Source: an uncultured Muribaculaceae bacterium (GTDB lineage Bacteria; Bacillota_I; Bacilli_A; RF39; UBA660). From it: a stretch of DNA of 40,781 nt. Position numbers and translations under genes: made by a program. Shown here one piece after another: positions 16,770 to 35,257 of the stretch (its first letter is position 1; every line of letters begins with the position of its first letter). The notes under the pieces were generated by a model. That model saw only the letters and a program-made list of their open reading frames with translations, was not told the DNA's origin and ran no database searches. The DNA is taken from NCBI GenBank assembly GCA_964538005.1, contig CAZIDO010000002.1:1-40781 (forward strand). The letters run 5' to 3'.

Positions 16770-17663
16770 ATGTTTAAAAAAATTATACTTCTATGTTTAG
16801 GTGTATTTATTTTTATTAGTGGAAATACTTTAGTAAAAGCTGATAACATTACTTATAAAAAATTAGACGGAATTTATTTCAACTTAAAAGTTAACGACAA
16901 AGTAGAATCAAATTATGTAACTATGTTTTATTTAGATGACCGTTTAGCGTATTGTATTGAGCCAGGTAAAGATATTACTACAAGTAATTATGATGCTTTT
17001 ACTGATTGGTCTAAAGTTAATATAGGTTCTGAAAAAAGTAATTATCTTGAAAAAATCGGATACTATGGTTATGAATATCCTGGGCATCAAACGGATAAAT
17101 ATTATATTGCAACACAAGAGTTGATTTGGCAAGCTTTTAATAATGTAGAAATTTATTTTACGACTGAAAAAAATGGTAATGGGAATATTATTGATATAAG
17201 TAAAGAAAAAGAACAAATACTTAAATTAGTAAAAGGTCATGATACTTATCCTTCTTTTTCAAATACTAAAATCACTGGTAAAGTAGGAAGAAATTTGATG
17301 GTTGAGGATACTAATAAAGTATTAAGTGATTACGATATAAGTACAAGTAAAAATCATAAAATAAAGATTAAAGATAACACTCTATCAATTGATTTTAATA
17401 ATGAATTGGTTAATGAAGAGGTAATAAATTTAACTAAAAAAAATTATGATAATAAAACCTTATTAGTATACCTTAAAGAGGGTTCGCAGCAATTAGCAAG
17501 CTTACGTTTATCGAGTACTAATAAAACAAATTTTACTTTGGCCAATGAACTAGAAGAGGTTCCAGAAGTTATTAAAGTACCAGTTACCGGAATTGATAAT
17601 AGTCAAGTAAAGCATTTTAATGTATTTTGCTTTGGAGTAAATAATGGCAAAAAGTTTAATTAA
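16770..17663 (+). CDS. Secreted thioester-domain (TQXA/TED) surface protein with a variant sorting signal
   Basis: Signal peptide MFKKIILLCLGVFIFISGNTLVKA. Cys motif AYCIEPG (Cys codon 16953-16955) and TQxxIW motif ATQELIW (Gln codon 17115-17117), as in Cys-Gln thioester adhesins. C-terminal VPVTG (17577-17591) is followed by a short hydrophobic stretch and a KK tail. Confidence 0.65.
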   Translation: MFKKIILLCLGVFIFISGNTLVKADNITYKKLDGIYFNLKVNDKVESNYVTMFYLDDRLAYCIEPGKDITTSNYDAFTDWSKVNIGSEKSNYLEKIGYYGYEYPGHQTDKYYIATQELIWQAFNNVEIYFTTEKNGNGNIIDISKEKEQILKLVKGHDTYPSFSNTKITGKVGRNLMVEDTNKVLSDYDISTSKNHKIKIKDNTLSIDFNNELVNEEVINLTKKNYDNKTLLVYLKEGSQQLASLRLSSTNKTNFTLANELEEVPEVIKVPVTGIDNSQVKHFNVFCFGVNNGKKFN

Positions 17664-18120
17664 AGCTATAGGAATTTTAGTAATGACGGCAAATATTAAT
17701 TTGAATACAGTAACTATTGAAGAATTATATTATCAAAACCCCATTATCGAAATTCCTAAAATAAATTTAAATAAAACCTTATATCCTGAAGATAAAACAA
17801 AAAATAATGTTAATAAAAACATCGAAATAATTAGTGGCTCTAAACTACCAAATACAACTAATGGTAACTTAATATTAGCTGCTCATAGTGGTAATACTAA
17901 AAATGCTTATTTTAATAATCTGGATAAGCTTAAATATAATGATACAATATATGCGTATTATCGTAATAAAAAATATAAATATGTAATTAGTGACATTTAT
18001 GATGTACCAAAAACTGGGTATATAAATATCAAAAGAAAATTAGATAGAACAACTATCACTTTAATAACGTGTAAAAAAAATACAAGCTTACAAACAGTAT
18101 ATATTGGATATTTGCAATAG
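17644..18120 (+). CDS. Small sortase-family transpeptidase
   Basis: 158 aa. Contains LILAAHSG (His) and TLITC (Cys). Overlaps the substrate gene by 20 nt. No Arg occurs after the catalytic Cys (see findings). Confidence 0.75.
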   Translation: MAKSLIKAIGILVMTANINLNTVTIEELYYQNPIIEIPKINLNKTLYPEDKTKNNVNKNIEIISGSKLPNTTNGNLILAAHSGNTKNAYFNNLDKLKYNDTIYAYYRNKKYKYVISDIYDVPKTGYINIKRKLDRTTITLITCKKNTSLQTVYIGYLQ

Positions 18121-18215: not shown

Positions 18216-18881
18216 ATGTTTAATTATAAATTGGGTATTATTTTAGTTTTTGTAGCGGCATTATTAACTTTCAATTTTGTTAGTGCTAAAAATAAAGATT
18301 TACCATTACTGTCAAAAGTAATTTATTTAGATCCGGGGCATGGTGGGATTGACTGTGGAGCTTTTTATAAAGATGTTAAAGAATCGGATTTAAATTTAGA
18401 GCTTAGCAACAGTATAATGAAAGCTTTAAAAGCAGATGGAGCTACTGTATATTTAACCAGATATGACGACTATGATTTATCAGTTAATAATGCATATAAT
18501 CGAAAAAGAAGTGATTTATCAAGAAGAGCAAATATCATTAATAAATCAGGATGCGATATGTTTATTTCTGTTCATTTAAATGCTGATGCGACTGAAACCT
18601 GGACTGGTGCGCAAGTATACTATGATAATATAAACTCAGAAAACGTTAAAATAGCAGATATTATGCAAGAAGAATTAAAACGTTATTTAAAAACCACTAG
18701 AGAATATAAAGAAAATAATACAAAGTATATGCAACATCGTATCAATCGACCGGGAGTTTTGTTAGAAGCTGGTTTCATGTCGAACGCTAATGAAAGATAT
18801 TTGCTACAGCAAACATCGTATCAAGATAAAATAGCAGAGGTCGTTAGGAAATCCATTGTAAAATATTATAAGAGTTTATAG
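18216..18881 (+). CDS. cwlD: N-acetylmuramoyl-L-alanine amidase, CwlD-like (Amidase_3)
   Basis: IYLDPGHGGIDCGA, SVHLNA and LEAGFMSN motifs, an N-terminal anchor, and a location downstream of rplM-rpsI as in Bacillus. Confidence 0.75.
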   Translation: MFNYKLGIILVFVAALLTFNFVSAKNKDLPLLSKVIYLDPGHGGIDCGAFYKDVKESDLNLELSNSIMKALKADGATVYLTRYDDYDLSVNNAYNRKRSDLSRRANIINKSGCDMFISVHLNADATETWTGAQVYYDNINSENVKIADIMQEELKRYLKTTREYKENNTKYMQHRINRPGVLLEAGFMSNANERYLLQQTSYQDKIAEVVRKSIVKYYKSL

Positions 18882-18934: not shown

Positions 18935-19876
18935 GTGAAAAGTATGACTAATAAAATATTTAGAACAATTGATGAACAAATCGATATATTAAAATCAAAA
19001 GGCTTAGTAATAACTGATGATGATAGAGCTAGAGACATTCTATTTAGAGAAAACTATTTCTTTATCAGTGGATATCGTCATATGTTTATGGCTGATAATA
19101 AACCAAATCGTTTTTTGCCAGGCACGAATTTTGAAGAATTATATGCGACGTTTACCTTTGATCGTAAACTCAGAAATACGTTTTTTAAAAATATTTTAAT
19201 AGTAGAGAACAACATTAAATCTATTATTAGTTATCAATTATCAAAGAAATATGGATTTAGGGATAAAGATTATCTAAATCCTAAAAACTTTACTCAAGAC
19301 AAGCTCGCTGATCGCCAAGTTAGAGATATTTTAAATAAGGTCCATAGACAGATTAGAGTCAATGGGCGTCAGCATACGGCGACAATGCATTATATCGACA
19401 ATTATGGATATATTCCAATGTGGATTTTAGTAAAAGTTTTATCTTTCGGAATTATGGGCGAATTTTATGGCATATTAAAAACAGATGATAAACAAGCTAT
19501 CGCCAATTTTTATCATCTCGATGGTGAATTGTTAGAAATATATTTAACAATTATCTCTAATTTCAGAAACGTATGTGCTCATGAAGATATTTTATATGAC
19601 CATCATACACAAAGATTATTACCTGATACTAAATATCATGAACTTCTAAATATTCCTACCATTGATGATGTGTATAAATATGGTAAGAATGATTTATATT
19701 GTTTAATTATAATGTTAAAACAATTGCTACGTAAAGAAGAATTTGAAGATATGATGAATGAAATAAAATGGGAAGTTGACACTTTGGATGAAGCTGTTGA
19801 TACAGTTTCCCTTAATAGTATTTTAAATAAAATTGGATTCCCAGATAATTGGTATGAAATAAAAAATCTAAATTAG
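18935..19876 (+). CDS. Abi_2 (AbiD/AbiF-like) abortive-infection protein
   Basis: The N-terminus ...TIDEQIDILKSKGLVITDDDRARDILFRENYFFISGYRHMF and the later NFRNVCAHEDILYD are typical of the Abi_2 family. The likely start is ATG 18944. Confidence 0.8.
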   Translation: MKSMTNKIFRTIDEQIDILKSKGLVITDDDRARDILFRENYFFISGYRHMFMADNKPNRFLPGTNFEELYATFTFDRKLRNTFFKNILIVENNIKSIISYQLSKKYGFRDKDYLNPKNFTQDKLADRQVRDILNKVHRQIRVNGRQHTATMHYIDNYGYIPMWILVKVLSFGIMGEFYGILKTDDKQAIANFYHLDGELLEIYLTIISNFRNVCAHEDILYDHHTQRLLPDTKYHELLNIPTIDDVYKYGKNDLYCLIIMLKQLLRKEEFEDMMNEIKWEVDTLDEAVDTVSLNSILNKIGFPDNWYEIKNLN

Positions 19877-22582: not shown

Positions 22583-23008
22583 TTAATGTATTTCTGGGCA
22601 TTCACCAGGTGCTGGCTGATAAAAGCAATGGCCTTTATATCTTCCGGTATTGTCTTGATCCCACCAAGTTGCCTTACATGCCTGACCTGTTGTTGGAGCA
22701 TAAAACCACAACGCATTTGTTGCTGGATGAAAGTATTCTCCTTTAATCACGCGGTCAGCTAGTCTTTTTTCTAAAGTCGTAGGATTACTAAAAAATAACG
22801 GACTATCTTTTCCAGAAAAACCTCCTGGGGTTTGATAAATCACTTCAGGAATTGTTCTTGTGTTTTTGAAAGTCAAACAGTTAGCAATGCCTCTGTTAAC
22901 GACAACGTTACCAACCATCAGCATTCCGAGGTCACCTTCCCCAATAGCTTCTGCTCGCATTAGACGAGCTAACATATCACGGTCTTTATCTGTCGATTGT
23001 ATAATCAT
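22583..23008 (-). CDS. SleB/CwlJ-family cell-wall (spore cortex-lytic) hydrolase
   Basis: MLARLMRAEAIGEGDLGMLMVGNVVVNR ... QTPGGFSG ... is the Hydrolase_2 (SleB/CwlJ) signature. No signal peptide, so CwlJ-like. Confidence 0.85.
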   Translation of the reverse strand: MIIQSTDKDRDMLARLMRAEAIGEGDLGMLMVGNVVVNRGIANCLTFKNTRTIPEVIYQTPGGFSGKDSPLFFSNPTTLEKRLADRVIKGEYFHPATNALWFYAPTTGQACKATWWDQDNTGRYKGHCFYQPAPGECPEIH

Positions 23009-24897: not shown

Positions 24898-25239
24898 TCA
24901 GTTGTTAAAAATAAAATTCAATAAACAAAAATTAGAATTAGAGCAATTTATTTCGTTACATTTCCTTTTTTTATTTTTACATACACAAATAGTATAATTT
25001 AATGACTTCGGAATTCTTAATGAGTAATTACCACATAAGTTAGTTATTGTGCTGGCAATCTTTAATCCACATTGATATATAGTTACCTTAGCGCATGACA
25101 GTCCAACAATACATTCTTTTTCTTTTGAGTAATACATACAAGTACCACATAAAATCAATTCATCTTCTAAAATCAAGTCTAAATTTATCTCATTATTATT
25201 TACAAATATTTTTTTAGACGTTGTAAAAGTCGAATTCAT
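24898..25239 (-). CDS. Small Cys-rich protein (113 aa, 11 Cys) with a CarboxypepD_reg-like beta-sandwich pattern
   Basis: Its start lies 1 nt after the upstream stop (TAAaATG), which suggests coupling. The pattern ...AKVTIYQCGLKIASTITNLCGNYSLRIPKSLNYTICV resembles the domain repeated in the upstream gene. No signal peptide. Confidence 0.55.
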   Translation of the reverse strand: MNSTFTTSKKIFVNNNEINLDLILEDELILCGTCMYYSKEKECIVGLSCAKVTIYQCGLKIASTITNLCGNYSLRIPKSLNYTICVCKNKKRKCNEINCSNSNFCLLNFIFNN

Positions 25240-25240
25240 T

Positions 25241-26101
25241 TTAAATAATCTCTGATTTTTTAGATTTCACGATATATGTACCATTAGTAACACTACCAAA
25301 CATGTATCTTCCATTAGTGTTTGTATAGGTGTTTGCCGTAAGAATCTCATTAATACCATTTATTCTGTATAAGCCCACAAAGGCATTTGGTACTACTATT
25401 CCTGAAATTGTTTTGACTTGTCCTGAAACCGTTGAACCAATATTCCCGACACTGCTTTTTAGTGACATATCCCCATTAAATTTTTGTTTATCAGATAACT
25501 CAACATTAGATACCTCTTCCGAATTATATCCATCTTTCTCATAGGAAAGTGTATACGTCCCATTATCAATATTTTCAATTATGAACTCGCCATCTTTAAT
25601 GCTTGTAGTTGTTGCTTTTAAATTACCGTTTTCATTAGTCCCTTGGTATAAAAGTATTTCAGCGCCTACTAAATATGCCCCTGTATTAAAATCTTTTATT
25701 TTCCCGTAAATTACATTTTTAGACATTTTAGCATTAGGCGTTATTACTAAGTTCATTGTTACTGGAATAATTGTCGAAATCGGTAAAGTAAGCCCTACTG
25801 ATAAGATATAACCATCTTTAACCGCAGATATTAGATATACACCAAGTGGTAAACTTCCAATTGTATAACTTCCATCGCCATTTGTCACCGTATGATTATA
25901 CGGAGTACCATCGCTTTTAAAAACTTTAACCGTTGCGCCACTAACAACATTTCCTGTTAGGAAAGTAGTATCATATACTTTTCCTTTGACACTTCCTGTG
26001 GTAATTGTTGTAGCATTACTTAGATTTAAATTAATATCCTGTTCACTATTTTTTAATTCAAATGATTCTGACGCTGATAATTCCAATTTATCACTATTCA
26101 T
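25241..26101 (-). CDS. Protein with three tandem CarboxypepD_reg-like (prealbumin-fold) domains, no signal peptide
   Basis: The pattern repeats three times: GKVYD..VSGATVKVFKSDGTPYNHTVTNGDGSYTIGSLPLGVYLISAVKDGY; GKIKD..LVGAEILLYQ...TTTSIKDGEFIIENIDNGTYTLSYEKDGY; GQVKT..VPNAFVGLYR...TYTNTNGRYMFGSVTNGTYIVKS. RBS GAGGAGGG. Confidence 0.75.
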   Translation of the reverse strand: MNSDKLELSASESFELKNSEQDINLNLSNATTITTGSVKGKVYDTTFLTGNVVSGATVKVFKSDGTPYNHTVTNGDGSYTIGSLPLGVYLISAVKDGYILSVGLTLPISTIIPVTMNLVITPNAKMSKNVIYGKIKDFNTGAYLVGAEILLYQGTNENGNLKATTTSIKDGEFIIENIDNGTYTLSYEKDGYNSEEVSNVELSDKQKFNGDMSLKSSVGNIGSTVSGQVKTISGIVVPNAFVGLYRINGINEILTANTYTNTNGRYMFGSVTNGTYIVKSKKSEII

Positions 26102-26294: not shown

Positions 26295-27308
26295 ATGAAA
26301 CAGTTGAAAGGAAGGATAGTAATGTATATAAAATCAAGTCTTAATTTAAATACTAAAGGAATTTATAATAACATGACGGTACGAAACAATGAATATCATT
26401 TACTTGATGATACTAGTAAGATATATAAATACGATGAAAAATTTAACTTTGTAGATACAGAAAAACTAGATAGAAACTTTAAGTTGTTGACTTATAATGA
26501 AAATGATTACATTTATTTAATGTCTTTAGAAAACAGTTCTAAAAATCTAAAAAAAGTTAATTTTAATTATGAAGAATATGCTGATTTAATAATAAAAAAC
26601 ACACTTTTAAAAATACACAATCTAAAAGACATTTATTATGATAAGTACCATAGCCGATATTTAATCGCTGATAAAAGGCATGTTTTTTCCATTGATAAAG
26701 AAGGAAACTTTTTAAAAAATGAAGTTCTTAATGATGAATTCTATGATTTAAAAATTGACATCGATTGTTGCCAAAAAGAAGAAATAATAAATCCAAAAGA
26801 TTTTAGTTTCACGGCTGTTGGCACAGATGGAAAATATAAATATGTCGCCTATACAAAAAACAAATCAGCATTTATTGCTAAAATATCAGAAAATGGTTCT
26901 AAAATAGATGATGTGTATGTGGGCGATAATATTGTAGTTAATTCCATCGTCTTTAATAATAAAAAAATGTTAGCCTTAGCTAATGATAAAAAAAATGATA
27001 TTATCTACGAAATTGAATACGATTTATCGAAAATAATAAATCCTAAACTCGAAGAAATTATTAATAAACTTATTGAACTATTAAATAATGTGTCTATAAA
27101 TGAAGTAGGGGTATCAACAATCATCAATACCGAAATGGAAAAAGTAAAAAAAATCATGGAAACAACAAAGGATCCAAACATTATATTAGAAGCCAACAAT
27201 TCTGCCACAAAAATGATTACAGAGGCTGTTGGTTTAGAAGATGCGCAGTACAATAATTTATTAATAATATTAGAAACCATAAAAGAATTAGAGTCATATT
27301 TAAATTAG
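26295..27308 (+). CDS. Hypothetical protein: beta-rich N-domain plus the C-terminal helical module shared with the giant and the 81-aa protein
   Basis: The likely start is ATG 26322, after GAAAGGAAGGA. The N-terminal roughly 240 aa show propeller-like strand repeats. The C-terminal 87 aa (27045-27305) align with 33841-34086 and with the giant's C-terminus. No signal peptide. Confidence 0.7.
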   Translation: MKQLKGRIVMYIKSSLNLNTKGIYNNMTVRNNEYHLLDDTSKIYKYDEKFNFVDTEKLDRNFKLLTYNENDYIYLMSLENSSKNLKKVNFNYEEYADLIIKNTLLKIHNLKDIYYDKYHSRYLIADKRHVFSIDKEGNFLKNEVLNDEFYDLKIDIDCCQKEEIINPKDFSFTAVGTDGKYKYVAYTKNKSAFIAKISENGSKIDDVYVGDNIVVNSIVFNNKKMLALANDKKNDIIYEIEYDLSKIINPKLEEIINKLIELLNNVSINEVGVSTIINTEMEKVKKIMETTKDPNIILEANNSATKMITEAVGLEDAQYNNLLIILETIKELESYLN

Positions 27309-27333
27309 TGATTATTAATTTTTATACCAAACT

Positions 27334-27359
27334 AAAAAAGGAAAATTTTCCTTTTTTTT
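27334..27359. terminator. Palindromic A/T-flanked hairpin (bidirectional terminator-like)
   Basis: AAAAAAGGAAAATTTTCCTTTTTT lies between the convergent genes 26295-27308 and 27436-33675. Confidence 0.5.
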
Positions 27360-27394
27360 AGTGCATATAACTAAGGCCCATTTTTACCATAACT

Positions 27395-27426
27395 AAAAAG
27401 CAAATAAGATTTTTAAACTTATTTGC
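27395..27426 (-). terminator. Rho-independent terminator of the giant gene
   Basis: On the minus strand, stem GCAAATAAG/CTTATTTGC with a 9-nt loop is followed by TTTTT. Confidence 0.65.
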
Positions 27427-27435
27427 TAATTACAA

Positions 27436-30400
27436 TTATTCATTAGTATATATTTTTTTTAAAATCAAACTTAGTTTATTCCTTGAAATAGTTTCAAATA
27501 GACTAAGCGTTATTATCATTTTTGTTATAGAGTCATTAATCCTAATAATCATGCTAGGATCTTTACTTTTCGCTAAAATAGTTTTAAGTTTATTAATTTC
27601 TGAAATAATAATATTATAAACAGAAAATTCTTCCGTTGCAATTACCATTAAGAATCTTATTAATTCAGGCGTTATAGTGTCTACAATTGATGTATATACC
27701 GCTTTAGACGTAGCTGTCTGATAATGTGTTTGCTCGTTTAAATCTTGGTATTGATACGCTACAAACGATTCATTTTTAATATTTAAACCAGTTCTAACCG
27801 CTTTAACATCAAAACCAATTGCCATAATCATTCCACTACTGATATTAGGAAGAACTAAATCCTCAATATTTCCTTGTACCGAAATATTATCAATCGTTAT
27901 TGAATTAGTTATAATTTCATAACGTTCATCAATTATATCCGTTAATTTAAGATTAGTAAAACTAATTGGTGCATCATTAAATAAATAAATATCGAAATGA
28001 TTAATATCATTTAAAACAAGAACTTTTTTAGAAAAATCTTTATGAATTTCCAAAAGTGGTACCAGAAAAGGTGTTACTGAAGTGACTAGTGGATAACTTT
28101 TTAAACTTTCCGTTATTTCCCTTCCTTGCTCATCTAAATATGTATAATTAATATGAGCATATTCAATAATATTATCAGCTACTGTCCTTCCCTTTAAATC
28201 AAACGTTAAAATGACATAATCATCCTGCAATAAAGGTCCAATATAAATTCCTTCGGTTAAATCTCCTTCAATTTTTTTCCCATCCCGTTTTAATGTTCCT
28301 GGAACAAAACTATATTCCGTTGGAATTGGACTATTAATGCTTACATCGTAAGTTACCTTAAAACCTTTATTTATTCCAATAATTCTTGCTTGAAGCGTTT
28401 CACCAACCATTACTTCATTGCGGTTAGCGTCTAATATAAGATCCATCTTAGGAATAATACTATCTACAATATCCGTAGTAGTTTCCGCCCACACTTCCTT
28501 TTGAATAAATACATTATTTAAATCAGTATAGTGATACTCTAATTTTACTTTATTAAGTGCCGCATTTTTCACACTTTTAGCCTTAACTTGATAAGTCAAA
28601 ATATGTGATTCATTAATCTTTAACTTTTCAAATTCAATACCATATAAAATATTTAAATCACTTGGAACATTATCAATTATTAAACTGTTTGCAACAAGTT
28701 CAAAAGCATCATCAAGAAAATCGGTAATTGTAATCGCTTCCGCATCCACGCTTCCAATATTAGTCATTTTAATTGTAAAATCAAGTGTTTCCTTAAGCCC
28801 TGCCATCTTATCAGCTGATTTTTCTAAGGAAATAAGAGCAATATCTTTTTCTAAAATATTAGTCGTAGTTGAATTACTCATTACGCCCCTGTAATTAATG
28901 TCGCCTAAACTATCAGTATAACTATAAGACACATTAGCAAAATTAATAATATTAGCTCCACTTATAGTCGCCATAGCATCAAATTTTACCGTCTTCTCTT
29001 CGCCTGGATTAATAGTTCCAACCGAAATAGAAGCTACCACTTCATTTTGTGATATCATTCCGTTATTATCAATAATTTGAATTGTATTTGGAATTATAGT
29101 ATAGTTATCAATCAAATAATTATCTAATTTTATATCATTTAAAACAACATTCCCATCATTTCTAAAATTAAAACTAAAAGCATTAATTTCCTCTAAATAT
29201 AAATTAGTTTTACTTACTTTTTGATCAACATTTATAATAACCGAATCTTTATCCTTAACCGTTAAATAAACAGGATTACTCATAGATTGTTTTTTAATAA
29301 TTTGATCTAAATTGTTTTGGTATGAATAAGCAACAGAAGCTTCATTTTTAATATTATCACCACTAGCTAACGGAATAGCTATAAATTCAATTACCAATTC
29401 CTCTTTCGGTAACAATTTATTAATGTTAATTCCTCTAATTAAATCACTAGCAATAACACTGTCGCCAATTTTAATTGACCCTGTTTTTAAAATAAATTCA
29501 ATTGGAAGATAATCCTTAACCGAAATATTAACAGCCTCTTTATTGCCATTATTTCTAATCGTTAAATAAAACATAACTTCATTAGTTACCGAAACGATTG
29601 TTGGATGGGCTTCTTTAATAATAACCACATCAGCTACCGTCTCTTCATAAACATTAGTAATTGAAGCATTACTTTGTGCGGTCATTTTAACTAATTTGCT
29701 ATTTTCATTAGTATACTCATAAGTTGCATCAACAATGTTTTTAATTGTTGTCCCTACCTTTTTAGCAAACGTTGAAAAAACAATATCAACTTTAGAATTA
29801 GGATTTATAGATACAATAGAAATATTGTTTGGTGAATAACTAGATTTTACCCCATCAATAGTTAAAGTATCATCTATGTACTCATACTCACCCGGTAAAA
29901 TATCAGTTAAAATAATATTTTGGGCATTTGTATTTCCTACGTTAGTAACCGTTAGGACAACATCATCCGTATCATTAAGTAGCCTATTTAAAGTCTCTAT
30001 TTTTGTTATCGTGAGTATTGCCTTTAACCCTTCTGTAATATTAGTATAATCCTTGTTACTGTAATTAGTATGAGTAATTTTATTAGCCAAAACATCAGTG
30101 TATGAAAAACTTACTTGAGCTTCATTTAAAACATTTGATTTATACGCTAAAGCTCTTACCTTAAAACGCAATGTTTTAGTTTGATGAGCTAAGATTTTTT
30201 CTAATTTTATCCCCTTAGTAATATTTTGAGCATTTGCCAAGCCATCAATAGTTAATGAATTTTCAATAAATGCATATTCATTCGGCAAACGATCTAAAAT
30301 TACTATTTCTTTTGCGTCAACATCCGTATCATTTAAAAGCTCAATTACAAAAGTATTCTCTTCATTAAGCTTAACCGTTTCCAATAAGTGTGATAACGTT

Positions 30401-33400
30401 ATAGAAACATTGGCAACTTTCTTTTCAATAATTGAAGTTAAGATAGGAATGCTGGAAATTGTTTCAGAAATTATTTCACCATTATTAGGGTCGTATTCAT
30501 AATTTGTTATAGCTGTATTTTTAATATTTGTTCCTATCGTTTGGCCAAGAGTATCAAATGATATTCGTTTTTTCTGATTAGGTAAAATAGTATCTAAATT
30601 AATTCCACCTTCTATTTGATTAGATGAAGCAACCCCATCTATTACTAAACTATTACTTATAATTGTGTAATGTGGATCTAAAATATCAATAACGACAACA
30701 TTATTAGCCGCAATATTACCGATATTTTGAACTTCCAAGGTAAAAGTATTTTTTTCATTAAGAAAAATAGTATCGTATAAAGCTGTTTTTTTAGTAATCA
30801 GCGTTGCTTCTTTTTTTTCATTTATACTAGTATATATATAATTACTAACACTAGATGCGACAATTTTTATATTATCTTTATTAAAATATTCGTAGCTTGA
30901 ACTAGCCTGATTAGAAATATCATTACCTAAGGCTCCAGCAATCGCCATAAATTTAATGGTTTTAGTTTGATTAGCTGCCATCGGACCAATATCTAAACCA
31001 ACTTCTATATCACCTGAAACATTTACCCCATCAACTGTTATTGAATTGTCTTTTAATGTATATTTACTATTTAAAACATCGGTTATCTTTACAACATCAG
31101 CTGACTTATTACCAATATTGGTAACCTTTAAAATAAACTCGGCATCTTCGCCTAAAAATACCTCGGGATTAGTGCAGTCTTTATCTATTTTAATAATAGC
31201 CTCTTCCATTTGTCCTATTTCATTTTTCCATCTATTACTACTACTTGTTTGTGTAATCATCGAGCCACTTTCATTTTCATAACTATAAGTTGCATAAGCC
31301 GTATTATATACATCTGTTCCAGCTTTTACTGCATTTGCCGAAAATTCAACCAAAGATTCCTGATTAGCTAAAATATTATCGATAGATATTCCTGTTTTAA
31401 TGTTTCCCGTCACTGATTTACCATTAACCATAATCGTATTAGGTAATATCTCGTAATTATCTGGAAGATCATCCCTAAAACTTATGTTGTTAGTGCTTAC
31501 GTTCCCTGTATTTCTTACATCAATACTAAAATGAACAATATCATTAAGTGCATAAATTGCTTTACTAGTATGTTTTTCTAGTGTTAAATTAGCCATCTTA
31601 ATTTTACTTATGTGAAAAGTTACGACATTACTGTTAGCCTGATTAGTAACCTTAACCCCAGCTAAGTTCGTATAATCATACTGCGCAAAAGCCGTATTTT
31701 TAATATTTCGTAATTCTCTTTTTCCTAAAACGGTATATCCAATAGTTACGGAATCTAATGGGTTTAAATCCTTTATAGTGATTCCGGAAACAATATTATC
31801 GCTTGTCTTAACATTATCAATGACTACACTTCCAAGAACAAATTCTAGTCCATTGGGTATAATGTTAAATACTTTAATATTTTGTAACTTGATAGTCCCA
31901 GTATTTACAAGTAATAAAGCAACCGTCGTCATATCGTTTTCATATAAATTGACTCTTCCTGCTGACTGATCAATCGTCAAACTTTGTAAAAAAGCTTTCG
32001 TAATGTCAATAGAAACATCATTACTTGAAATAGTCGTCTCCATTGAAGTACTATTTAAGGAATATTGTACCTTAGCTGATGCTTTAGTTATTATCCCTGT
32101 TTTTGTGGTTTTAGGTAATGCGGAAAACGAAATTGTTTTTTCCTCTTCAATTCCTAAATTATTTATCGCTAAACCAGTCGTTATATCATCACTGACTGCC
32201 GTGCCATTTACTTTAATTGAACCCGGTTTAAAAGTTAACTCGTTATTTAAATCATCAGTAATAACAATATTAGATAGTTCAACAGTTCCCGTATTCTTAA
32301 GAATAATTGTAAAAAGAACCTCTTCATTCAAATAATAAGATAATTTATTACTATTTTTAGTTAAGCTAGCGCCAAAAGCTGGTTCTCCAAGAACATGCAC
32401 AAAGACCTCATTAGTTTGCGCATCAAGTATCTTAGCTTTGCCATCTCGTTCATAGTGCCCTGCTAAAATAGCGCTATTAGGAATCCTTGTGGCAATAGTT
32501 TTCGCCCTAACTTGGTATTCTATTTTATAAGTTTGATTAGCTGTTAAATCACCAAGCTCGGTGACCTCCATAAAATTACCGGTCGTTACGCCATTTATTT
32601 TTGTGCTGCCATCGATATATTCAAAAAATGGATCCAAATTATCTCTAACGCTTACGTGATTTAAAGTCATATTACCAATGTTTTTAAGATTTACGGTAAA
32701 ATTTAAAATATCATTTACTTTGCAAGTGGTTTTATCCACGCTCTTTGTATATAAAACAGCCACATCTTCTCTAGAAATAACATCTACTAAAACGATATTA
32801 CTTGTTTTTCTAATTGTCTGCGTACCTCCATCAGGGTCAGTATAGTTTGCACTAATCATTACGGAGTTTGGTATTTTACTTTTCATAACACTGCCTATAA
32901 CTCTAAAGGTTACAATCGATTCGTTGCTTCCAGCAATCCCTCCAACCATTACATTAGATAAATCGTTTTCGCTACTTGTGGTACCATTTATAGAAATACT
33001 ACCTTGAACCAATGTTAAACCAGAATCAAGCTGATCGTTTAATATAACATTATTTAATGTGACAAAAGCTGTATTTTTAATTGAAACTGTATATTCTAAT
33101 TCTTCGTTTTCAAAAGCTACTGTTTTATTACAAGTTTTAATAACTTCAAAATCACCCGTTGTTTTATCAATTATATTAAATATAAGTTTAGTGCTTTTTT
33201 TAAGTAAAGTTTCTTTTTCACCCGTTGCATTTATAAAGCTTGCTGAACCATCAACAAGATTTGCTGCATAGCCAGTGGAAGTAGCGGTTACATTAAATGT
33301 CACAACTTTCGTACCTCCGATATTGACGTTTCCAATCACAATTGGATTATTGAGATTATCATTGTTTTTTACACCATCTATTACTAATGAATTATCGACA

Positions 33401-33675
33401 AAAGTAAAATGATTGTCTAATACATTAGTTAATTGTAAATCAGAAAGGTTTGTGTTTCCTGTATTTTGAACTGTAATTGTAAATTTAAGAATATCATCTT
33501 TAAAACAATTAACTTTGCTTGATATCATATCAATCGTATAATTACCAAGCGGGGCGTCCACTATTTTCAATGTTGATATTTCACTATCCATATTGGCAAT
33601 AGATGTTAAAACTTCGTCCATTTGATTTACTTCCTGAGAATTTTTCTCTAAGGAAGAATTAAAATCAGATTTCAT
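27436..33675 (-). CDS. Giant (2079 aa) protein of about 15 tandem DUF11-type ('conserved repeat domain') modules with a C-terminal helical module; no signal peptide, TM or LPXTG
   Basis: Uninterrupted 6.2-kb ORF with RBS AAGGATGG. The recurring roughly 130-aa unit has hallmarks such as ..L.FTI.V.NTGN....N..I.D.L......V..S..IDGV.......GI.I..I...Q......F.A.A...G..I.N.A...Y.Y... The N-terminus is hydrophilic (MKSDFNSSLEKNSQEVNQMDEV...). Confidence 0.9.
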   Translation of the reverse strand: MKSDFNSSLEKNSQEVNQMDEVLTSIANMDSEISTLKIVDAPLGNYTIDMISSKVNCFKDDILKFTITVQNTGNTNLSDLQLTNVLDNHFTFVDNSLVIDGVKNNDNLNNPIVIGNVNIGGTKVVTFNVTATSTGYAANLVDGSASFINATGEKETLLKKSTKLIFNIIDKTTGDFEVIKTCNKTVAFENEELEYTVSIKNTAFVTLNNVILNDQLDSGLTLVQGSISINGTTSSENDLSNVMVGGIAGSNESIVTFRVIGSVMKSKIPNSVMISANYTDPDGGTQTIRKTSNIVLVDVISREDVAVLYTKSVDKTTCKVNDILNFTVNLKNIGNMTLNHVSVRDNLDPFFEYIDGSTKINGVTTGNFMEVTELGDLTANQTYKIEYQVRAKTIATRIPNSAILAGHYERDGKAKILDAQTNEVFVHVLGEPAFGASLTKNSNKLSYYLNEEVLFTIILKNTGTVELSNIVITDDLNNELTFKPGSIKVNGTAVSDDITTGLAINNLGIEEEKTISFSALPKTTKTGIITKASAKVQYSLNSTSMETTISSNDVSIDITKAFLQSLTIDQSAGRVNLYENDMTTVALLLVNTGTIKLQNIKVFNIIPNGLEFVLGSVVIDNVKTSDNIVSGITIKDLNPLDSVTIGYTVLGKRELRNIKNTAFAQYDYTNLAGVKVTNQANSNVVTFHISKIKMANLTLEKHTSKAIYALNDIVHFSIDVRNTGNVSTNNISFRDDLPDNYEILPNTIMVNGKSVTGNIKTGISIDNILANQESLVEFSANAVKAGTDVYNTAYATYSYENESGSMITQTSSSNRWKNEIGQMEEAIIKIDKDCTNPEVFLGEDAEFILKVTNIGNKSADVVKITDVLNSKYTLKDNSITVDGVNVSGDIEVGLDIGPMAANQTKTIKFMAIAGALGNDISNQASSSYEYFNKDNIKIVASSVSNYIYTSINEKKEATLITKKTALYDTIFLNEKNTFTLEVQNIGNIAANNVVVIDILDPHYTIISNSLVIDGVASSNQIEGGINLDTILPNQKKRISFDTLGQTIGTNIKNTAITNYEYDPNNGEIISETISSIPILTSIIEKKVANVSITLSHLLETVKLNEENTFVIELLNDTDVDAKEIVILDRLPNEYAFIENSLTIDGLANAQNITKGIKLEKILAHQTKTLRFKVRALAYKSNVLNEAQVSFSYTDVLANKITHTNYSNKDYTNITEGLKAILTITKIETLNRLLNDTDDVVLTVTNVGNTNAQNIILTDILPGEYEYIDDTLTIDGVKSSYSPNNISIVSINPNSKVDIVFSTFAKKVGTTIKNIVDATYEYTNENSKLVKMTAQSNASITNVYEETVADVVIIKEAHPTIVSVTNEVMFYLTIRNNGNKEAVNISVKDYLPIEFILKTGSIKIGDSVIASDLIRGININKLLPKEELVIEFIAIPLASGDNIKNEASVAYSYQNNLDQIIKKQSMSNPVYLTVKDKDSVIINVDQKVSKTNLYLEEINAFSFNFRNDGNVVLNDIKLDNYLIDNYTIIPNTIQIIDNNGMISQNEVVASISVGTINPGEEKTVKFDAMATISGANIINFANVSYSYTDSLGDINYRGVMSNSTTTNILEKDIALISLEKSADKMAGLKETLDFTIKMTNIGSVDAEAITITDFLDDAFELVANSLIIDNVPSDLNILYGIEFEKLKINESHILTYQVKAKSVKNAALNKVKLEYHYTDLNNVFIQKEVWAETTTDIVDSIIPKMDLILDANRNEVMVGETLQARIIGINKGFKVTYDVSINSPIPTEYSFVPGTLKRDGKKIEGDLTEGIYIGPLLQDDYVILTFDLKGRTVADNIIEYAHINYTYLDEQGREITESLKSYPLVTSVTPFLVPLLEIHKDFSKKVLVLNDINHFDIYLFNDAPISFTNLKLTDIIDERYEIITNSITIDNISVQGNIEDLVLPNISSGMIMAIGFDVKAVRTGLNIKNESFVAYQYQDLNEQTHYQTATSKAVYTSIVDTITPELIRFLMVIATEEFSVYNIIISEINKLKTILAKSKDPSMIIRINDSITKMIITLSLFETISRNKLSLILKKIYTNE
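27691..33540 (-). repeat. About 15 tandem, highly diverged protein-level DUF11 domain repeats (each roughly 125-135 aa)
   Basis: I counted 15 occurrences of the (V/I)xNxGN ... IDG(V/L) ... NxAxxxY core by reading the translation. The repeats are not conserved at the nucleotide level. Confidence 0.7.
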
Positions 33676-33840
33676 ATAAATATACCATCCTTTATTATAT
33701 ATTTTTTAAGCATATAAATATCTCATCCCCTTTCATGATAACTTATGCACCTTTAAAAATATAATTAAGTTACATCGTCTAAAAATAAAATAACAAAGCA
33801 AAAAAAACATATTTAAAAAAATTAAATATGAATTTCCATC

Positions 33841-34086
33841 TTAATTTAAATAAGGCTTTATCAGTTCCAATTTTTGATTCAATAAAGTCTCTAGGTTATT
33901 AACTTCTTTAATTAAATTATTAACCGATTGATTAACGAGTAATATCTCTTCCGGTGTTCCGCCAAGATCAATCACTTTTTGGATTTTTAAAGCTTCCTGA
34001 TCTAATAAACTTGATATTGCCTCTTGTTCATCAGCAATCGAGGAAGCAATGTTATCAATCGCCTCACTAAAAGTTGTGTCTTTCAT
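33841..34086 (-). CDS. 81-aa all-helical protein consisting solely of the shared module
   Basis: RBS AAGGAGGAAAT. The sequence IDNIASSIADEQEAISSLLDQEALKIQKVIDLGGTPEEILLVNQSVNNLIKEVNNLETLLNQKL aligns with the C-termini of the 337-aa and 2079-aa proteins. Confidence 0.65.
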   Translation of the reverse strand: MKDTTFSEAIDNIASSIADEQEAISSLLDQEALKIQKVIDLGGTPEEILLVNQSVNNLIKEVNNLETLLNQKLELIKPYLN

Positions 34087-34156
34087 ATTTCCTCCTTTTT
34101 TAAGATATATATTGATTTTCTATTTATATCTGCCTTGTCTTTTTATCAATAATTAA

Positions 34157-34364: not shown

Positions 34365-34724
34365 ATGAAGAAAATTAAAATTAAATGTTTGTTATGTGAC
34401 AGCTTAGATATCTATAAATACCATATATATATGTATGATTGCGATGGTAGATTAGTCGAAGATACTGAAACAAAACAAGGCTGTGCTCTTCTAAATGTTG
34501 AGAGGTTAGGATTATACAAAATCATTATAATCCCTAAAGGATGTTTACTTCCGTGTAGGATAGTTAAATGTATTTATATAAATAATGATATTACTAATTT
34601 TCTATTTACTTTTAATAAATTTGTTTGTAAAAGACATTCAATTATTGTAAGGTTAACGGATAAACATTATAAAGGTTTGTCTGTTGCGAAAGGAGAAATG
34701 CATTTATGGAAAATAAAATTGTAA
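34365..34724 (+). CDS. Small Cys-rich protein (119 aa, 8 Cys), beta-sandwich-like
   Basis: RBS TGGAGGGA. Contains IYMYDCDGRLVEDTETKQGCALLNVERLGLYKIIIIPKGC. The C-terminal motif RLTDKHYKGLSVAKGEMHLW is shared with the next ORF's C-terminus. No signal peptide. Confidence 0.55.
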   Translation: MKKIKIKCLLCDSLDIYKYHIYMYDCDGRLVEDTETKQGCALLNVERLGLYKIIIIPKGCLLPCRIVKCIYINNDITNFLFTFNKFVCKRHSIIVRLTDKHYKGLSVAKGEMHLWKIKL

Positions 34725-35257
34725 TTCACATTACCAACGGAGGAGGAAGCACTCAAATTGTTAATGGAAATTATAACATTACCTCATCTACTTTAGGATA
34801 TGATGACACAACAATCGACCCTGCCGCAGTAGAAATAACTGATGCAACCGAAGGCTACGATTTTATGGTTGGTGCTACAGGCGTTCTAACGTTACATGTT
34901 TCTGACGATGGAACAGATGCCGGAGTTCCAATAGTCGGCGCAAAATTTGCCAGATGTGATGCTGAAGGAAAAATCTATGGAGACGAAGTTATATCTGATG
35001 ACTCGGGTAATGCAGTATTTAATCATGTTCCCTTTTCTGCCGAAGAGAATGCCCCAGTGGTTTACTACAAACAAACCGCCTCAGATGGACAGCACACTTT
35101 TGCTGCAGAATTAAAAAATACTACTTTAGCTGAAGAAGCGGTATTAGTTGAATTACAAAATGAAGAAGCGGTACTTAAGAATTTTAAATTAACCGATTTA
35201 AACTATAGCGGCTTACCAATTGCCGATGGTCAAATACATGCAACAGTAGCAGAATAA
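34706..35257 (+). CDS. Ala/Gly/Asp-rich prealbumin/SpaA-like beta-sandwich protein (183 aa), no signal peptide
   Basis: RBS AAAGGAGA. Contains LTLHVSDDGTDAGVPIVGAKFARCDAEGKIYGDEVISDDSGNAVFNHVPF...YYKQTASDGQHTF. Ends in KLTDLNYSGLPIADGQIHA. Visibly more G+C-rich than its neighbours. Confidence 0.7.
   Translation: MENKIVIHITNGGGSTQIVNGNYNITSSTLGYDDTTIDPAAVEITDATEGYDFMVGATGVLTLHVSDDGTDAGVPIVGAKFARCDAEGKIYGDEVISDDSGNAVFNHVPFSAEENAPVVYYKQTASDGQHTFAAELKNTTLAEEAVLVELQNEEAVLKNFKLTDLNYSGLPIADGQIHATVAE

Follow-up and report, generated by a model that had tools for sequence, protein, structure and literature searches.

Organization of the Locus

The 40,781-nucleotide stretch analysed here (the window), from contig CAZIDO010000002.1 of an uncultured bacterium, contains a gene for a small protein, P81, and, on one side of it, genes for a giant protein and for the fusion protein P337; the features of this locus are as follows.

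24898–25239, minus strand: P113, Cys-rich, adjoining P286
25241–26101, minus strand: P286, three CarboxypepD_reg / SdrD_B-like domains (Pfam CarboxypepD_reg, E 4e-31, 3 stretches)
26322–27017, plus strand: P337 N-terminal domain, predicted beta-propeller (AF2, Foldseek)
27042–27305, plus strand: P337 C-terminal A-ENA-like tail, putative adaptor subtype (AF2, HMMs)
27439–27684, minus strand: giant C-terminal A-ENA-like tail, putative adaptor subtype, residues 1998–2079 (stand-alone-type HMM)
27703–33567, minus strand: giant stalk, 15 tandem CLIPPER Ig-like domains, residues 37–1991 (Pfam, TIGR01451, self-jackhmmer)
33568–33675, minus strand: giant N-terminal 36 residues, non-A-ENA (shuffle test, HMM, homologue)
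33841–34086, minus strand: P81, 81-aa stand-alone A-ENA protein without N-terminal lock, putative major subunit of a fibre (PF26595, 9ihh, AF2)
34365–34724 and 34706–35257, plus strand: P119 and P183, overlapping gene pair, conserved cassette neighbours

The true start of P337 is likely the ATG at 26322, which is preceded by the Shine-Dalgarno-like GAAAGGAAGG and gives a 328-aa product, rather than position 26295.

A Helical Module Shared by Three Proteins

A preliminary description of this DNA had reported one helical module in three proteins of the locus, as the whole of P81 (33841–34086, minus strand) and as the C-terminal tails of P337 (27045–27305, plus strand) and of the giant (27439–27678, minus strand). 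These coordinates are all correct, and the similarity of the three segments is significant in profile and shuffle tests, though plain BLASTP does not reach significance between P81 and either tail (E 0.052 and 0.83). The tails align with 36% identity over 78 aa (BLASTP E 8e-8), compared with 24–27% between P81 and the tails. In Smith-Waterman tests against 2000 composition-preserving shuffles, the two tails scored 115 (shuffle mean 34.6 ± 6.2; 0/2000 reached the score), P81 and the giant tail 76 (29.5 ± 5.4; 0/2000), and P81 and the P337 tail 69 (37.2 ± 6.7; 1/2000). An HMM built from the tails only recovered P81 with an E-value of 1.4e-6 from all 450 six-frame segments of the window, the next match being at 0.12, and no fourth copy was found among these segments by HMM. 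Conversely, an HMM of eight P81-type stand-alone proteins, with no tails included, matched the giant tail (E 1.3e-8) and the P337 tail (E 1.5e-5); the latter was also matched by an HMM of P81 and the Bacillus thuringiensis sv. israelensis (Bti) proteins (E 6.2e-6). An hhalign comparison of the P81 family with the tails gave an E-value of 5.7e-6 over 63 columns, in the register proposed in the preliminary description. The module had been left there without a named family; the family is PF26595, A_ENA.

A-ENA is the building block of the "sporesilk" spore fibres (Sleutel et al., Nat Commun, March 2026; PDB 9ihh; PMC13111695), an ~80-aa alpha-helical hairpin, copies of which build up a two-start cross-alpha fibre by stacking, with autocatalytic intermolecular isopeptide bonds between neighbours. 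By profile and alignment evidence, the module common to P81, the giant tail and the P337 tail is an A-ENA domain (Pfam PF26595). Pfam has precomputed A_ENA on a public protein identical to P81, the best PDB sequence match of P81 is the A-ENA fibre 9ihh (E 0.0088, residues 3–78 to chain residues 11–90), and 9ihh is likewise the best PDB match of the tails-only profile (E 0.025), in the same register. Although PF26595 is not on record for the window's own giant and P337 tails, Pfam A_ENA matches occur in relatives of both fusions at 42–52% identity (loci L007, L006 and L095). These include a 468-aa protein of L007, to which the C-terminal ~457 aa of the giant, tail included, are 52% identical (E 6e-143), as well as a split homologue of P337 in L006 and another homologue in L095. 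Pfam A_ENA matches are also found in the more distant P337-family members P0137 and P0153; distant members of this family carry the canonical "SHILNAEGEKIQK" sequence, and a BLASTP comparison of P81 with the canonical A-ENA domain at the C-terminus of one P337-family protein gave an E-value of 7e-9.

A helical hairpin is predicted for both P81 (helices 3–41 and 45–80, pLDDT 82) and the P337 tail (helices 241–281 and 285–327) by AF2. The preliminary description had proposed a docking or oligomerisation module, forming a coiled-coil bundle, that tethers different cargo to one scaffold; its core idea fits the family, the evidence being that of the A-ENA paper, but the coiled-coil bundle does not. 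Instead of a simple coiled-coil bundle, A-ENA is a polymer of stacked cross-alpha hairpins, which isopeptide bonds between the molecules lock covalently.

Conservation of Putative Isopeptide-Forming Residues

The positions that match E39/K42/N64 of the Bti protein are E/K/N in all three modules of the window: E31 (33994–33996), K34 (33985–33987) and N52 (33931–33933) in P81, E2026/K2029/N2047 in the giant tail and E280/K283/N301 (337-aa numbering) in the P337 tail. When only single-copy modules in the top 150 representatives are counted, the triad is near-invariant: E, K and N are present in 68/69, 69/69 and 69/69 stand-alone proteins, respectively, and in 57/57 C-terminal fusions at each of the three positions, while tandem-repeat A-ENA proteins depart slightly from the triad. 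The shared positions noted in the preliminary description (E..K ... N.S) are those of isopeptide bond 2, with Glu as the catalyst, Lys as the donor and Asn as the acceptor. The residues of bond 3 are retained in P81 (E20, Q21, K72) and the giant tail (E2015/E2016/K2067); the P337 tail has the acceptor, E270, and has lost the donor (N321) and the catalyst (N269). Since the tails share the donor, acceptor and catalyst triad with P81, a cross-reaction between them is chemically possible.

Against this chemistry, only two of the five Bti isopeptide bond types are possible for P81 and the giant tail, and P81 has no counterpart of the N-terminal lock by which the Bti fibre is stapled. Moreover, a Foldseek search with the P81 model placed 9ihh third (E 0.31), and designed helical hairpin oligomers fit the model equally well. 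Such features would suit a plain helical-hairpin module that joins the three proteins in small non-covalent bundles, with neither fibre nor isopeptide chemistry. We regard this explanation as very improbable, as the E-K-N triad and the E/Q29 and K84 positions are conserved far beyond the needs of a hydrophobic bundle, the module is homologous to a protein shown to self-polymerise in E. coli, and stand-alone 80-aa genes with strong ribosome-binding sites suit a major structural subunit, the putative role of P81.

Passenger Domains of the Two Fusions

By domain searches, the giant is composed of 15 CLIPPER (DUF11) domains of ~128 aa each followed by the A-ENA tail: Pfam DUF11 matched in 14 stretches (E 1e-101), TIGR01451 in 13, and self-jackhmmer resolved 15 repeats. 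The pattern K-34-D-56-N, found in most repeats, has the spacing of K715/D748/N806, which form an intramolecular isopeptide bond in the CLIPPER crystal structure 9IFR, and the stalk is probably stabilised by bonds of this kind. A tandem stalk with K/D/N at this spacing is shared with CLIPPER fibrillar adhesins (9IFR; PMC12617251), which typically combine an adhesive head with a signal peptide and a domain for sorting or anchoring (PMC12617251), whereas the giant has none of the three, neither a signal peptide nor a sorting motif being read from its sequence; the A-ENA tail would be its anchor. The giant N-terminus (about 33570–33620) had been thought to resemble the first helix of the module as well, but its Smith-Waterman score was reached by 270/2000 shuffles, the HMM E-value was 0.14, and the same stretch in a 72%-identical homologue (L094) is an inter-domain segment following an extra CLIPPER domain, and the resemblance is accordingly best read as chance.

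Residues 1–232 of P337 are predicted by AF2 to be all-beta, with ~20 strands in ~5 blades (pLDDT 84). Foldseek matched this domain to WD40 and NHL propellers, with the best target-normalised TM-scores, 0.60–0.66, for the glutaminyl cyclases 2iwa and 3nol; it has no Pfam family match. Of the 150 top representatives, ~41 share the propeller domain (jackhmmer gave 45 matches, 4 of them to members of the window protein's own cluster), and a C-terminal A-ENA module always follows it.

The Cassette in Related Loci

The cassette was found again in several metagenomic loci, with identities of 30–66%, and comprises a stand-alone subunit and a giant together with, where contigs reach, the propeller protein and two small neighbours. 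In L007, L095 and L099, a P81-type gene adjoins a CLIPPER giant whose C-terminus is of the tail type; in L094, L091 and L097 it adjoins CLIPPER giant fragments, the contig ending before the giants' C-termini. The proteins of these six loci are 26–84% identical to those of the window. A P337-type propeller gene is also present in L091 and L095. That the three genes stay linked in different species speaks for a shared function. The two small neighbours, P119 and P183, have homologues by the cassette in L006 (41% and 61%), L095 (42% and 66%) and L099 (64% and 67%); they have no signal peptides and only sub-threshold Pfam matches (Ig-like or prealbumin-like), and are candidate accessory components of the cassette. 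On the other side, P286 and P113 are adhesin-like without a signal peptide, have no A-ENA HMM match and were not found in the related loci, and their belonging to the system is uncertain.

The division into tail-type and stand-alone-type modules is also kept across species. As the tails are nearer to each other (36%, E 8e-8) than either is to P81, and free tail-type proteins exist elsewhere (P0029, P0047), the tails might assemble together and not with P81. There would then be one gene cluster with two assemblies, a P81 homopolymer and a structure in which the giant and P337 tails pair or polymerise only with one another, such as a bundle of giants capped by the propeller, or a base that gives anchorage in the surface of the spore. 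The propeller fusions of L006 and L010, which have no stand-alone gene within reach, agree with this arrangement, which we nevertheless consider unlikely: a free tail-type subunit is absent from the window, in six loci the giant constantly has a P81-type gene beside it, and the tails keep the donor, acceptor and catalyst of P81. In addition, A-ENA subunits stack about 1 nm apart along the protofilament and an Ig-like domain is several times wider, which would make a homopolymer of giant tails sterically implausible. On the same grounds, in a fibre built of P81, the giant must be sub-stoichiometric or terminal.

Spore Context

The window contains a CwlD-like gene (TIGR02883, E 1.5e-57, under the curated NCBIfam cutoff) as well as one that encodes a SleB-like domain. 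In relatives, the cassette lies 7–9 kb from spoVAC/AD/AEB (L099) or adjoins sspI (L097), and CATATAnTA elements resembling the putative SigK −10 of Bti a-ena are found upstream of the genes. No signal peptide was found on the cassette proteins, although Sec and sortase do serve the organism for a TED adhesin encoded in the same window, which has a signal peptide and a VPVTG motif, with a sortase gene adjacent. From this context we infer that the host sporulates.

The same fibre chemistry might instead serve a vegetative or lysis-released fibre of the cell surface or matrix, the ability to sporulate having perhaps been lost in this lineage. No clear SigK or SigE promoter precedes the window's P81, the SigK-like −10 element being degenerate, and the CwlD match is sub-cutoff. 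The host, uncultured and with a small genome, belongs to the Bacilli, and related uncultured orders have lost sporulation repeatedly. However, RF39, one of these orders, of which we take the host to be a member, is predicted to sporulate; with the lack of signal peptides and the spore genes and promoter-like elements described above, this leaves a non-spore fibre improbable.

Comparison with Known Systems

The closest known proteins are A-ENA and A-ENA1 of Bti (Q8KNV8, Q8KNV7), whose homologous ~80-aa hairpin shares with P81 and the tails the E39/K42/N64 triad and, with P81 and the giant tail, the K84-E/Q29 pair and the catalyst E28. In the A-ENA paper, the free A-ENA domain polymerises into a fibre, and expression is sporulation-specific with production in the mother cell (PMC13111695), which the lack of signal peptides in the window proteins parallels. 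P81 differs in its length (81 aa vs 101 aa), in lacking the N-terminal lock (MGMPxIP...) and hence bond 1, and in lacking the donors of bonds 4 and 5 (K77, K76). The cassette lies on the chromosome of a low-GC, uncultured bacterium of the Bacilli, whereas Bti A-ENA is on a toxin plasmid, and the window has neither Cry/Cyt toxin genes nor an adjacent amidase-SPOR gene.

In the published fusions, as that paper's text describes them, an N-terminal A-ENA domain precedes a collagen-like/C1q "ruffle", with rarer SdrD_B / PF01345 or 4Fe-4S passengers, and AF3 predicts that passenger-fused domains dock on the fibre by mimicking subunit contacts (PMC13111695). They resemble the window fusions in having adhesin-like passengers and in adjoining single-domain A-ENA genes, and CLIPPER/DUF11 (PF01345) is already among the passenger types. 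The module is C-terminal in both window fusions and N-terminal in the collagen-like/C1q class as presented in the paper's discussion; its methods mention an analysis of "homologs with C-terminal fusions" (PMC13111695). Of the window's passengers, a 15-domain CLIPPER stalk and a beta-propeller, the latter is outside the passenger list in that text, and the window tails form a distinct subtype without PF26595 on record. The S-ENA and L-ENA fibres (DUF3992) of the Bacillus cereus group, with L-BclA tip fibrillae, provide a working analogy only: a robust spore fibre with a small major subunit, in which a minor subunit docked like a subunit presents a binding domain (PMC13111695). They are unrelated to the cross-alpha, isopeptide-locked A-ENA in fold and sequence (PMC13111695), and were termed disulfide-linked pili in the title of an earlier paper from the same group. 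The A-ENA family and the passenger-fusion idea are already published; what the window adds to the text of the A-ENA paper is the C-terminal placement of the module, the propeller as a passenger, a subunit without the lock, and the host lineage.

A Model for Passenger Display

We consider it probable that P81 is the major fibre subunit and that the tails, as a subtype specialised for the adaptor role, dock passengers onto a spore fibre; fibre formation, heterotypic docking, crosslinking, spore localisation and passenger function are what we infer for this locus. In this model, P81, a short form that lacks the N-terminal lock, would be the major subunit of a cross-alpha fibre. It has no signal peptide, and its most likely site of synthesis would be the mother cell of a sporulating gut bacterium, an uncultured member of the Bacilli with a small genome. 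The A-ENA domains at the C-terminal ends of the giant and P337, diverged as an adaptor subtype, would cap or insert into the P81 fibre by mimicking the subunit-subunit contact, the giant being sub-stoichiometric or terminal, and would then be fixed covalently through the conserved Lys-Asn bond with Glu as catalyst (E31/K34/N52 in P81, with the corresponding triad in both tails). The resulting spore appendage would be chemically robust and would present a CLIPPER stalk of tens of nanometres and a beta-propeller, probably as adhesive or binding passengers. The C-terminal A-ENA tails thus most likely graft a giant stalk protein and a beta-propeller onto the spore fibre of an uncultured gut bacterium.

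A Helical Module Shared by Three Proteins

One helical module occurs in three proteins of the locus, as the whole of an 81-aa protein (P81) and as the C-terminal tails of a 2079-aa CLIPPER protein (the giant) and of a predicted beta-propeller fusion protein (P337). The coordinates of the preliminary description were all correct. The three genes lie as follows:

26295–27308, plus strand: P337, mechanical ORF of 337 aa
27436–33675, minus strand: the giant, 2079 aa
33841–34086, minus strand: P81, 81 aa

Public gene calls start P337 at the ATG at 26322, which yields 328 aa and, compared with 26295, is the only start preceded by an SD-like sequence (GAAAGGAAGG). The window is low in G+C (about 25–33%) and carries housekeeping genes (ecfA-ecfA'-ecfT-truA-rplM-rpsI, YfhO, an HtrA-like protease and others); because the locus is flanked by such genes (ecfA-ecfT-truA-rplM-rpsI, YfhO and HtrA), it is chromosomal, and an origin from a mobile element or phage was rejected. 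Scans of the locus for sigma-70 promoters and terminators gave background levels. Two further ORFs on the minus strand, one of 91 aa antisense to the P337 tail (27005–27280) and one of 53 aa upstream of P81 (34173–34334), are not called in public contigs and look like AT-rich chance ORFs.

The two tails are 36% identical over 78 aa (BLASTP, E = 8e-8), and plain BLASTP of P81 against either tail was not significant (E = 0.052 and 0.83). The three-way similarity, proposed earlier from alignment by eye, was nevertheless borne out by shuffling, HMM and hhalign tests, all of which were significant for P81 against the tails. In Smith-Waterman alignments compared with 2000 composition-preserving shuffles, P81 scored 76 against the giant tail (shuffles 29.5 ± 5.4), a value reached by none of the 2000, and 69 against the P337 tail (37.2 ± 6.7), reached by one. 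An HMM built from the tails only, scanned against the complete six-frame set of 450 segments from the window, recovered P81 at E = 1.4e-6 with the runner-up at E = 0.12, and detected no fourth copy of the module; conversely, an HMM from eight stand-alone P81-type proteins matched both tails, with E = 1.3e-8 for that of the giant and E = 1.5e-5 for that of P337, and hhalign joined the P81 family to the tails over 63 columns (E = 5.7e-6). A generic low-complexity or coiled-coil similarity was ruled out by reversed controls, in which the giant tail scored at background and the P337 tail well under its forward alignment, and also because the positions that the three sequences have in common are the catalytic and bond-forming ones described below. 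A resemblance of the giant's N-terminus to the first helix had also been suggested, and this did not hold: its score was reached by 270 of 2000 shuffles, its HMM E-value was 0.14, and the same residues in the 72%-identical homologue of a related metagenomic locus (L094) lie between domains, following an additional CLIPPER domain, which together rule out a fourth (half) copy there.

Identification of the Module as an A-ENA Domain

The definition of the A-ENA domain comes from Sleutel, Sogues and Remaut (Nat Commun 2026; PMC13111695). As described there, the 101-aa protein Q8KNV8 of Bacillus thuringiensis sv. israelensis (Bti) folds into an alpha-helical hairpin that carries a lock of 13 residues at its N-terminus, and it forms a fibre that is a two-start cross-alpha stack with a rise of 5.37 Å and a twist of 186.4°. 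Each subunit is joined to seven neighbours via five types of autocatalytic intermolecular isopeptide bond with Glu catalysts, namely G2-Q44, K42-N64, K84-E29, K77-E78 and K76-Q82 (PMC13111695).

The shared module is very probably an A-ENA domain. A public protein identical to P81 carries the precomputed Pfam annotation PF26595 (A_ENA), and no PF26595 match stands in the precomputed public annotation of the giant or P337. Scans against Pfam and NCBIfam gave no match for P81, P337 or the tails; the empty Pfam result for P81 is explained by the release scanned, which predates PF26595. Among 177,635 PDB sequences, the best match for P81 was the Bti fibre structure 9ihh (E = 0.0088, residues 3–78 to chain residues 11–90), and the tails-only profile independently ranked 9ihh first in the same register (E = 0.025), although both values are modest. 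P81 was predicted by AF2 as a two-helix hairpin (H3–41 and H45–80, pLDDT 82), as was the P337 tail (H241–281 and H285–327). In a Foldseek search, 9ihh ranked third for the P81 model (TMq 0.71, 31% identity), with a non-significant E-value of 0.31; hairpins are too generic for such a comparison, and A-ENA was not separable in it from designed hairpins.

Intermediate sequences connected the tails to the family. With a five-sequence module alignment as query, exhaustive HMMER searching of 1.84 billion representative proteins returned 958 matches at E <= 1e-3. Word-indexed searches of a large protein database returned no match for a tails-only alignment and only four proteins for a P337-family alignment; P81 alone, searched against GTDB species genomes, retrieved no related locus. 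The combination of the P337 N-terminal domain and a terminal module is common to about 41 of the top 150 representatives (45 jackhmmer matches to the N-domain, including four cluster members of the window protein itself). Distant members of the P337 family have a canonical A-ENA sequence (ESIALxExALSHILNAEGEKIQK...VNxSV...LE..LY.KL) close to the Bti protein; two of them, P0137 and P0153, carry precomputed PF26595, and P81 matches the P0153 tail directly (BLASTP, E = 7e-9). In locus L006 the P337 homologue is represented by two ORFs, the second of which is 50% identical to the P337 tail and annotated A_ENA, and the homologue in L095 (324 aa, 42% identical) has a weak A_ENA match. For the giant, the link is a 468-aa protein of L007 that has a Pfam A_ENA match beside its CLIPPER matches and shares 52% identity (E = 6e-143) with the C-terminal ~457 aa of the giant, tail included. 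Because these intermediates carry A_ENA, both tails are probably diverged A-ENA domains with no PF26595 match on record.

Two side observations concern the intermediates and the wider family. At L006:10001–10949 a 212-aa propeller ORF overlaps a 109-aa A_ENA ORF and a DDE transposase adjoins; a frameshift, a pseudogene or a true split gene would each account for this arrangement. Several family members (P0017 and P0021, also P0018, P0019 and P0123) contain two to four tandem A-ENA modules per chain, in which the positions equivalent to K77/E78 become K/N in later repeats; no mention of this architecture was found in the main text of the A-ENA paper (PMC13111695).

Residues of the Isopeptide Bonds

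The three modules were mapped onto Bti numbering at 13 positions.

Residues of the three modules at positions of the Bti A-ENA protein
Position	28	29	39	41	42	44	64	76	77	78	82	84	86
P81	E	Q	E	L	K	Q	N	N	L	E	N	K	E
P337 tail	N	E	E	E	K	K	N	G	L	E	Y	N	L
Giant tail	E	E	E	N	K	K	N	L	F	E	R	K	S

The set for isopeptide bond 2 (donor K42, acceptor N64, catalyst E39) is complete in all three modules, as K34/N52/E31 in P81, K283/N301/E280 in P337 and K2029/N2047/E2026 in the giant; the shared "E..K ... N.S" positions recognized by eye in the preliminary description are this triad. Across the top 150 representatives, E39, K42 and N64 are present in 68, 69 and 69 of 69 single-copy stand-alone proteins and each in all 57 C-terminal fusions, with a slight deviation in tandem-repeat proteins. 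Non-covalent bundling of the modules is a less likely reading.

The set for bond 3 (K84, E/Q29 and E28) is present in P81 (K72, Q21, E20) and in the giant tail (K2067, E2016, E2015), and the P337 tail retains only the acceptor E270, the donor being replaced by N321 and the catalyst by N269. For bonds 4 and 5 the Lys donors K76 and K77 are missing from all three modules, as in most of the family (K77 is Leu in 58 of 69 stand-alone members). P81 starts at about Bti residue 9–11 and thus lacks the MGMPxIP N-terminal lock (Bti residues 2–14), and the tails have a passenger domain in its place; of the bond-1 residues, the P337 tail alone has the catalyst E41 and P81 alone the acceptor Q44. Bond 1 is therefore not available, since the lock is missing and no module keeps both catalyst and acceptor. 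The lock and bonds 1, 4 and 5 vary across the family and mark the Bti type rather than the A-ENA family. What is conserved throughout the family is one Glu/Lys/Asn triad together with the K84-E/Q29 pair.

Passengers of the Tails

The giant opens with an N-terminal stretch of 36 aa, continues as 15 tandem CLIPPER/DUF11 repeats (residues 37–1991) and ends in the tail; Pfam PF01345 (DUF11) matched 14 stretches (E = 1e-101), and a self-search resolved 15 repeats. The repeats contain a near-invariant Asp and Asn and, in most, an upstream Lys, at spacings of 34 and 56, compared with 33 and 58 in the CLIPPER crystal structure 9IFR, in which K715 and N806 form an intramolecular isopeptide bond. They thus fit the Lys/Asp/Asn triad of such a bond, which is predicted here by spacing only, since phmmer found no match for the giant in the PDB. 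Homologues were located at L007:2945–4351, L094:618–1910, L095:1460–9877 and L099:4191–9830, in addition to 27436–33675 in the window, and range from 468 aa (L007) through 1879 (L099) and 2079 (window) to 2805 aa (L095), a variation that appears to arise from gain or loss of CLIPPER repeats with the tail kept. A first CLIPPER domain present in the L007 and L094 proteins is missing from the window giant.

The N-domain of P337 matched no Pfam family and is a predicted beta-propeller. Its AF2 model (about 20 strands, pLDDT 84, from an alignment of only four sequences), on which alone the blade number rests, gave 904 Foldseek matches at E <= 1e-3; all 50 of the 50 matches listed are propellers, and the best TMt among them is 0.60–0.66, to the glutaminyl cyclases 2iwa and 3nol.

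No signal peptide was detected on P81, the giant, P337, the neighbouring pairs' proteins P119 and P183, or P286. Typical CLIPPER adhesins carry a signal peptide and a sorting domain, whereas the giant has neither; within the window itself, a thioester-domain (TED) adhesin (16770–17663) differs from the cassette proteins in having a signal peptide, a VPVTG motif and an adjoining sortase gene. The TED adhesin and sortase genes together span 16770–18120 on the plus strand. In a published survey, srtA/B sortases are absent from two related uncultured orders, RFN20 and ML615J-28 (PMC10868615).

A Conserved Cassette

Gene content of related metagenomic loci (percentages are identities to the window proteins)
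Locus	Stand-alone	Giant	Propeller	P119/P183
L007	78%	468 aa, tail-type end	not in contig	not in contig
L094	84%	fragment, 72%	contig ends before	contig ends before
L091	50%	divergent, at least 996 aa	14 nt downstream, 37%	contig ends
L095/L096	44%	2805 aa, 31%, tail-type end	324 aa, 42%	42%/66%
L099/L100	44%	1879 aa, 32%, tail-type end	not within reach	64%/67%
L097	47%	fragment, at least 800 aa	none	contig ends
L006	none within reach	none	split gene	41%/61%

From this gene content, the stand-alone subunit and the giant are constant partners, and the propeller and the P119/P183 pair are frequent ones. In every species the tail-type modules favour the tails HMM and the stand-alone modules favour the stand-alone HMM, which argues that the two subtypes are old and maintained. 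P119/P183 (34365–35257, plus strand) is an overlapping gene pair with no family match, whose homologues (41–67% identity) adjoin the A-ENA/CLIPPER cassette in L006, L095 and L099; it is a candidate further component, with a role in, e.g., anchoring or assembly. Conservation of P183 exceeds that of the fibre genes. Directly beside P337 lies a minus-strand gene pair (24898–26101) encoding P286, an adhesin-like protein with three CarboxypepD_reg/SdrD_B-like domains and no A-ENA module, followed by the Cys-rich P113; this pair was not found in the related loci retrieved.

Host and Spore Context

A conserved protein of the window (DUF1846) is 80–84% identical to proteins of uncultured Bacilli MAGs, including "Firmicutes bacterium CAG:822" and "Candidatus Coprosoma sp.", some of which are labelled Tenericutes or Mycoplasmatota; complete chromosomes among these relatives measure 1.26–1.54 Mb. 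These MAGs probably belong to GTDB order RF39. RF39 and parts of the related uncultured orders RFN20 and ML615J-28 are predicted to be still sporulating with a reduced gene set (PMC10868615). The window encodes a CwlD-like amidase (18216–18881, plus strand; TIGR02883, E = 1.5e-57, 194.8 bits, with the cutoff at 221.6) and, in a protein of 141 aa, a cortex-lytic domain of SleB-like type (22583–23008, minus strand; E = 5e-10), which hint that the host, a small-genome member of Bacilli, may form spores. Between the CwlD-like amidase and the HtrA-like protease lies a gene for an Abi_2 (abortive-infection-like) protein (18935–19876, plus strand). In related loci, spoVAC-spoVAD-spoVAEB lie 7–9 kb from the cassette (L099) and sspI adjoins it (L097). 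These genes and the lack of signal peptides on the cassette proteins are indirect evidence for an association with spores.

A CATATAnTA element, identical to the −10 portion of the SigK site proposed for Bti a-ena, was found 5–8 nt before the ribosome-binding site of P81-type genes in four related loci. The regions, with that of the window added, are:

L007:2560–2592 (variant with TT for the final TA)
L091:3100–3130
L095:9970–10000
L099:9970–10000
34087–34125 in the window: degenerate version, CAATATATATC

A −35 "AC" at the right distance is present in L095 only, and a SigK/SigE promoter upstream of P81 in the window could not be established. A vegetative rather than a spore role is the less likely of the two, set beside the sporulation genes near the cassettes of L097 and L099.

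A Working Model

We favour, with some reserve, a model in which P81 would polymerize into a cross-alpha fibre, the giant and P337 would dock on it through their tail-type domains, acting as pseudo-subunits, and the docked tails would then be fixed via Lys-Asn isopeptide bonds, with a role on the spore. Subunits stack about 1 nm apart along the protofilament, so the giant could not fill every position and would be a minor or terminal component. The absence of a bond-3 donor from the P337 tail hints, speculatively, at a preferred polarity. The main rival, in which the tails assemble only with each other, draws on the tails being more alike than either is to P81 and on free tail-type proteins found elsewhere; it appears rather improbable beside docking of the tails on a P81 fibre. 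More tentatively, an uncultured clade of small-genome gut Bacilli may have split A-ENA into a lock-less fibre subunit and a C-terminal adaptor that grafts passengers covalently. The two subtypes would, on the same tentative footing, be co-evolving, with two very different passengers, a CLIPPER stalk of variable length (15–20 domains) and a beta-propeller.

The A-ENA family, its fibre and its chemistry are already published, as are A-ENA fusions that dock passengers, PF01345 being listed as a passenger type (PMC13111695). These fibres were reported only in 2026 and from a single insect pathogen, in which the self-crosslinking material gathers spores and toxin crystals into clusters, and in the published fusions the A-ENA domain is N-terminal and the passenger C-terminal (PMC13111695). 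The main text of that paper does not describe C-terminal placement, a beta-propeller passenger family, a lock-less stand-alone subtype paired with a distinct adaptor subtype, a conserved five-gene cassette, or A-ENA in an uncultured small-genome lineage (PMC13111695). Among the best 150 of the 958 representatives the module is C-terminal in 57 and N-terminal in 12, with a query profile that favours tails.

A-ENA chemistry probably also operates in an uncultured gut lineage whose genome, judged from related MAG chromosomes, measures about 1.3–1.5 Mb, and the domain, N-terminal in published descriptions, would also be a putative C-terminal anchor. The cassette of stand-alone subunit, CLIPPER giant, beta-propeller and two small proteins is conserved. 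The locus offers testable predictions on how passengers are mounted onto spore fibres, candidates for proteins with which so far ungrowable gut spore-formers bind hosts or surfaces, and natural parts for engineered, self-assembling and covalently locked display fibres. If the more tentative reading of two co-evolving subtypes is true, C-terminal A-ENA tails, found in 57 of the best 150 representatives, would form a natural plug-in system, widespread in nature, for display on spore surfaces, the near-invariant Glu/Lys/Asn triad would be the minimal chemistry of a natural intermolecular "tag/catcher", and the cassette would be evidence that its never-cultured host organisms make appendaged spores.
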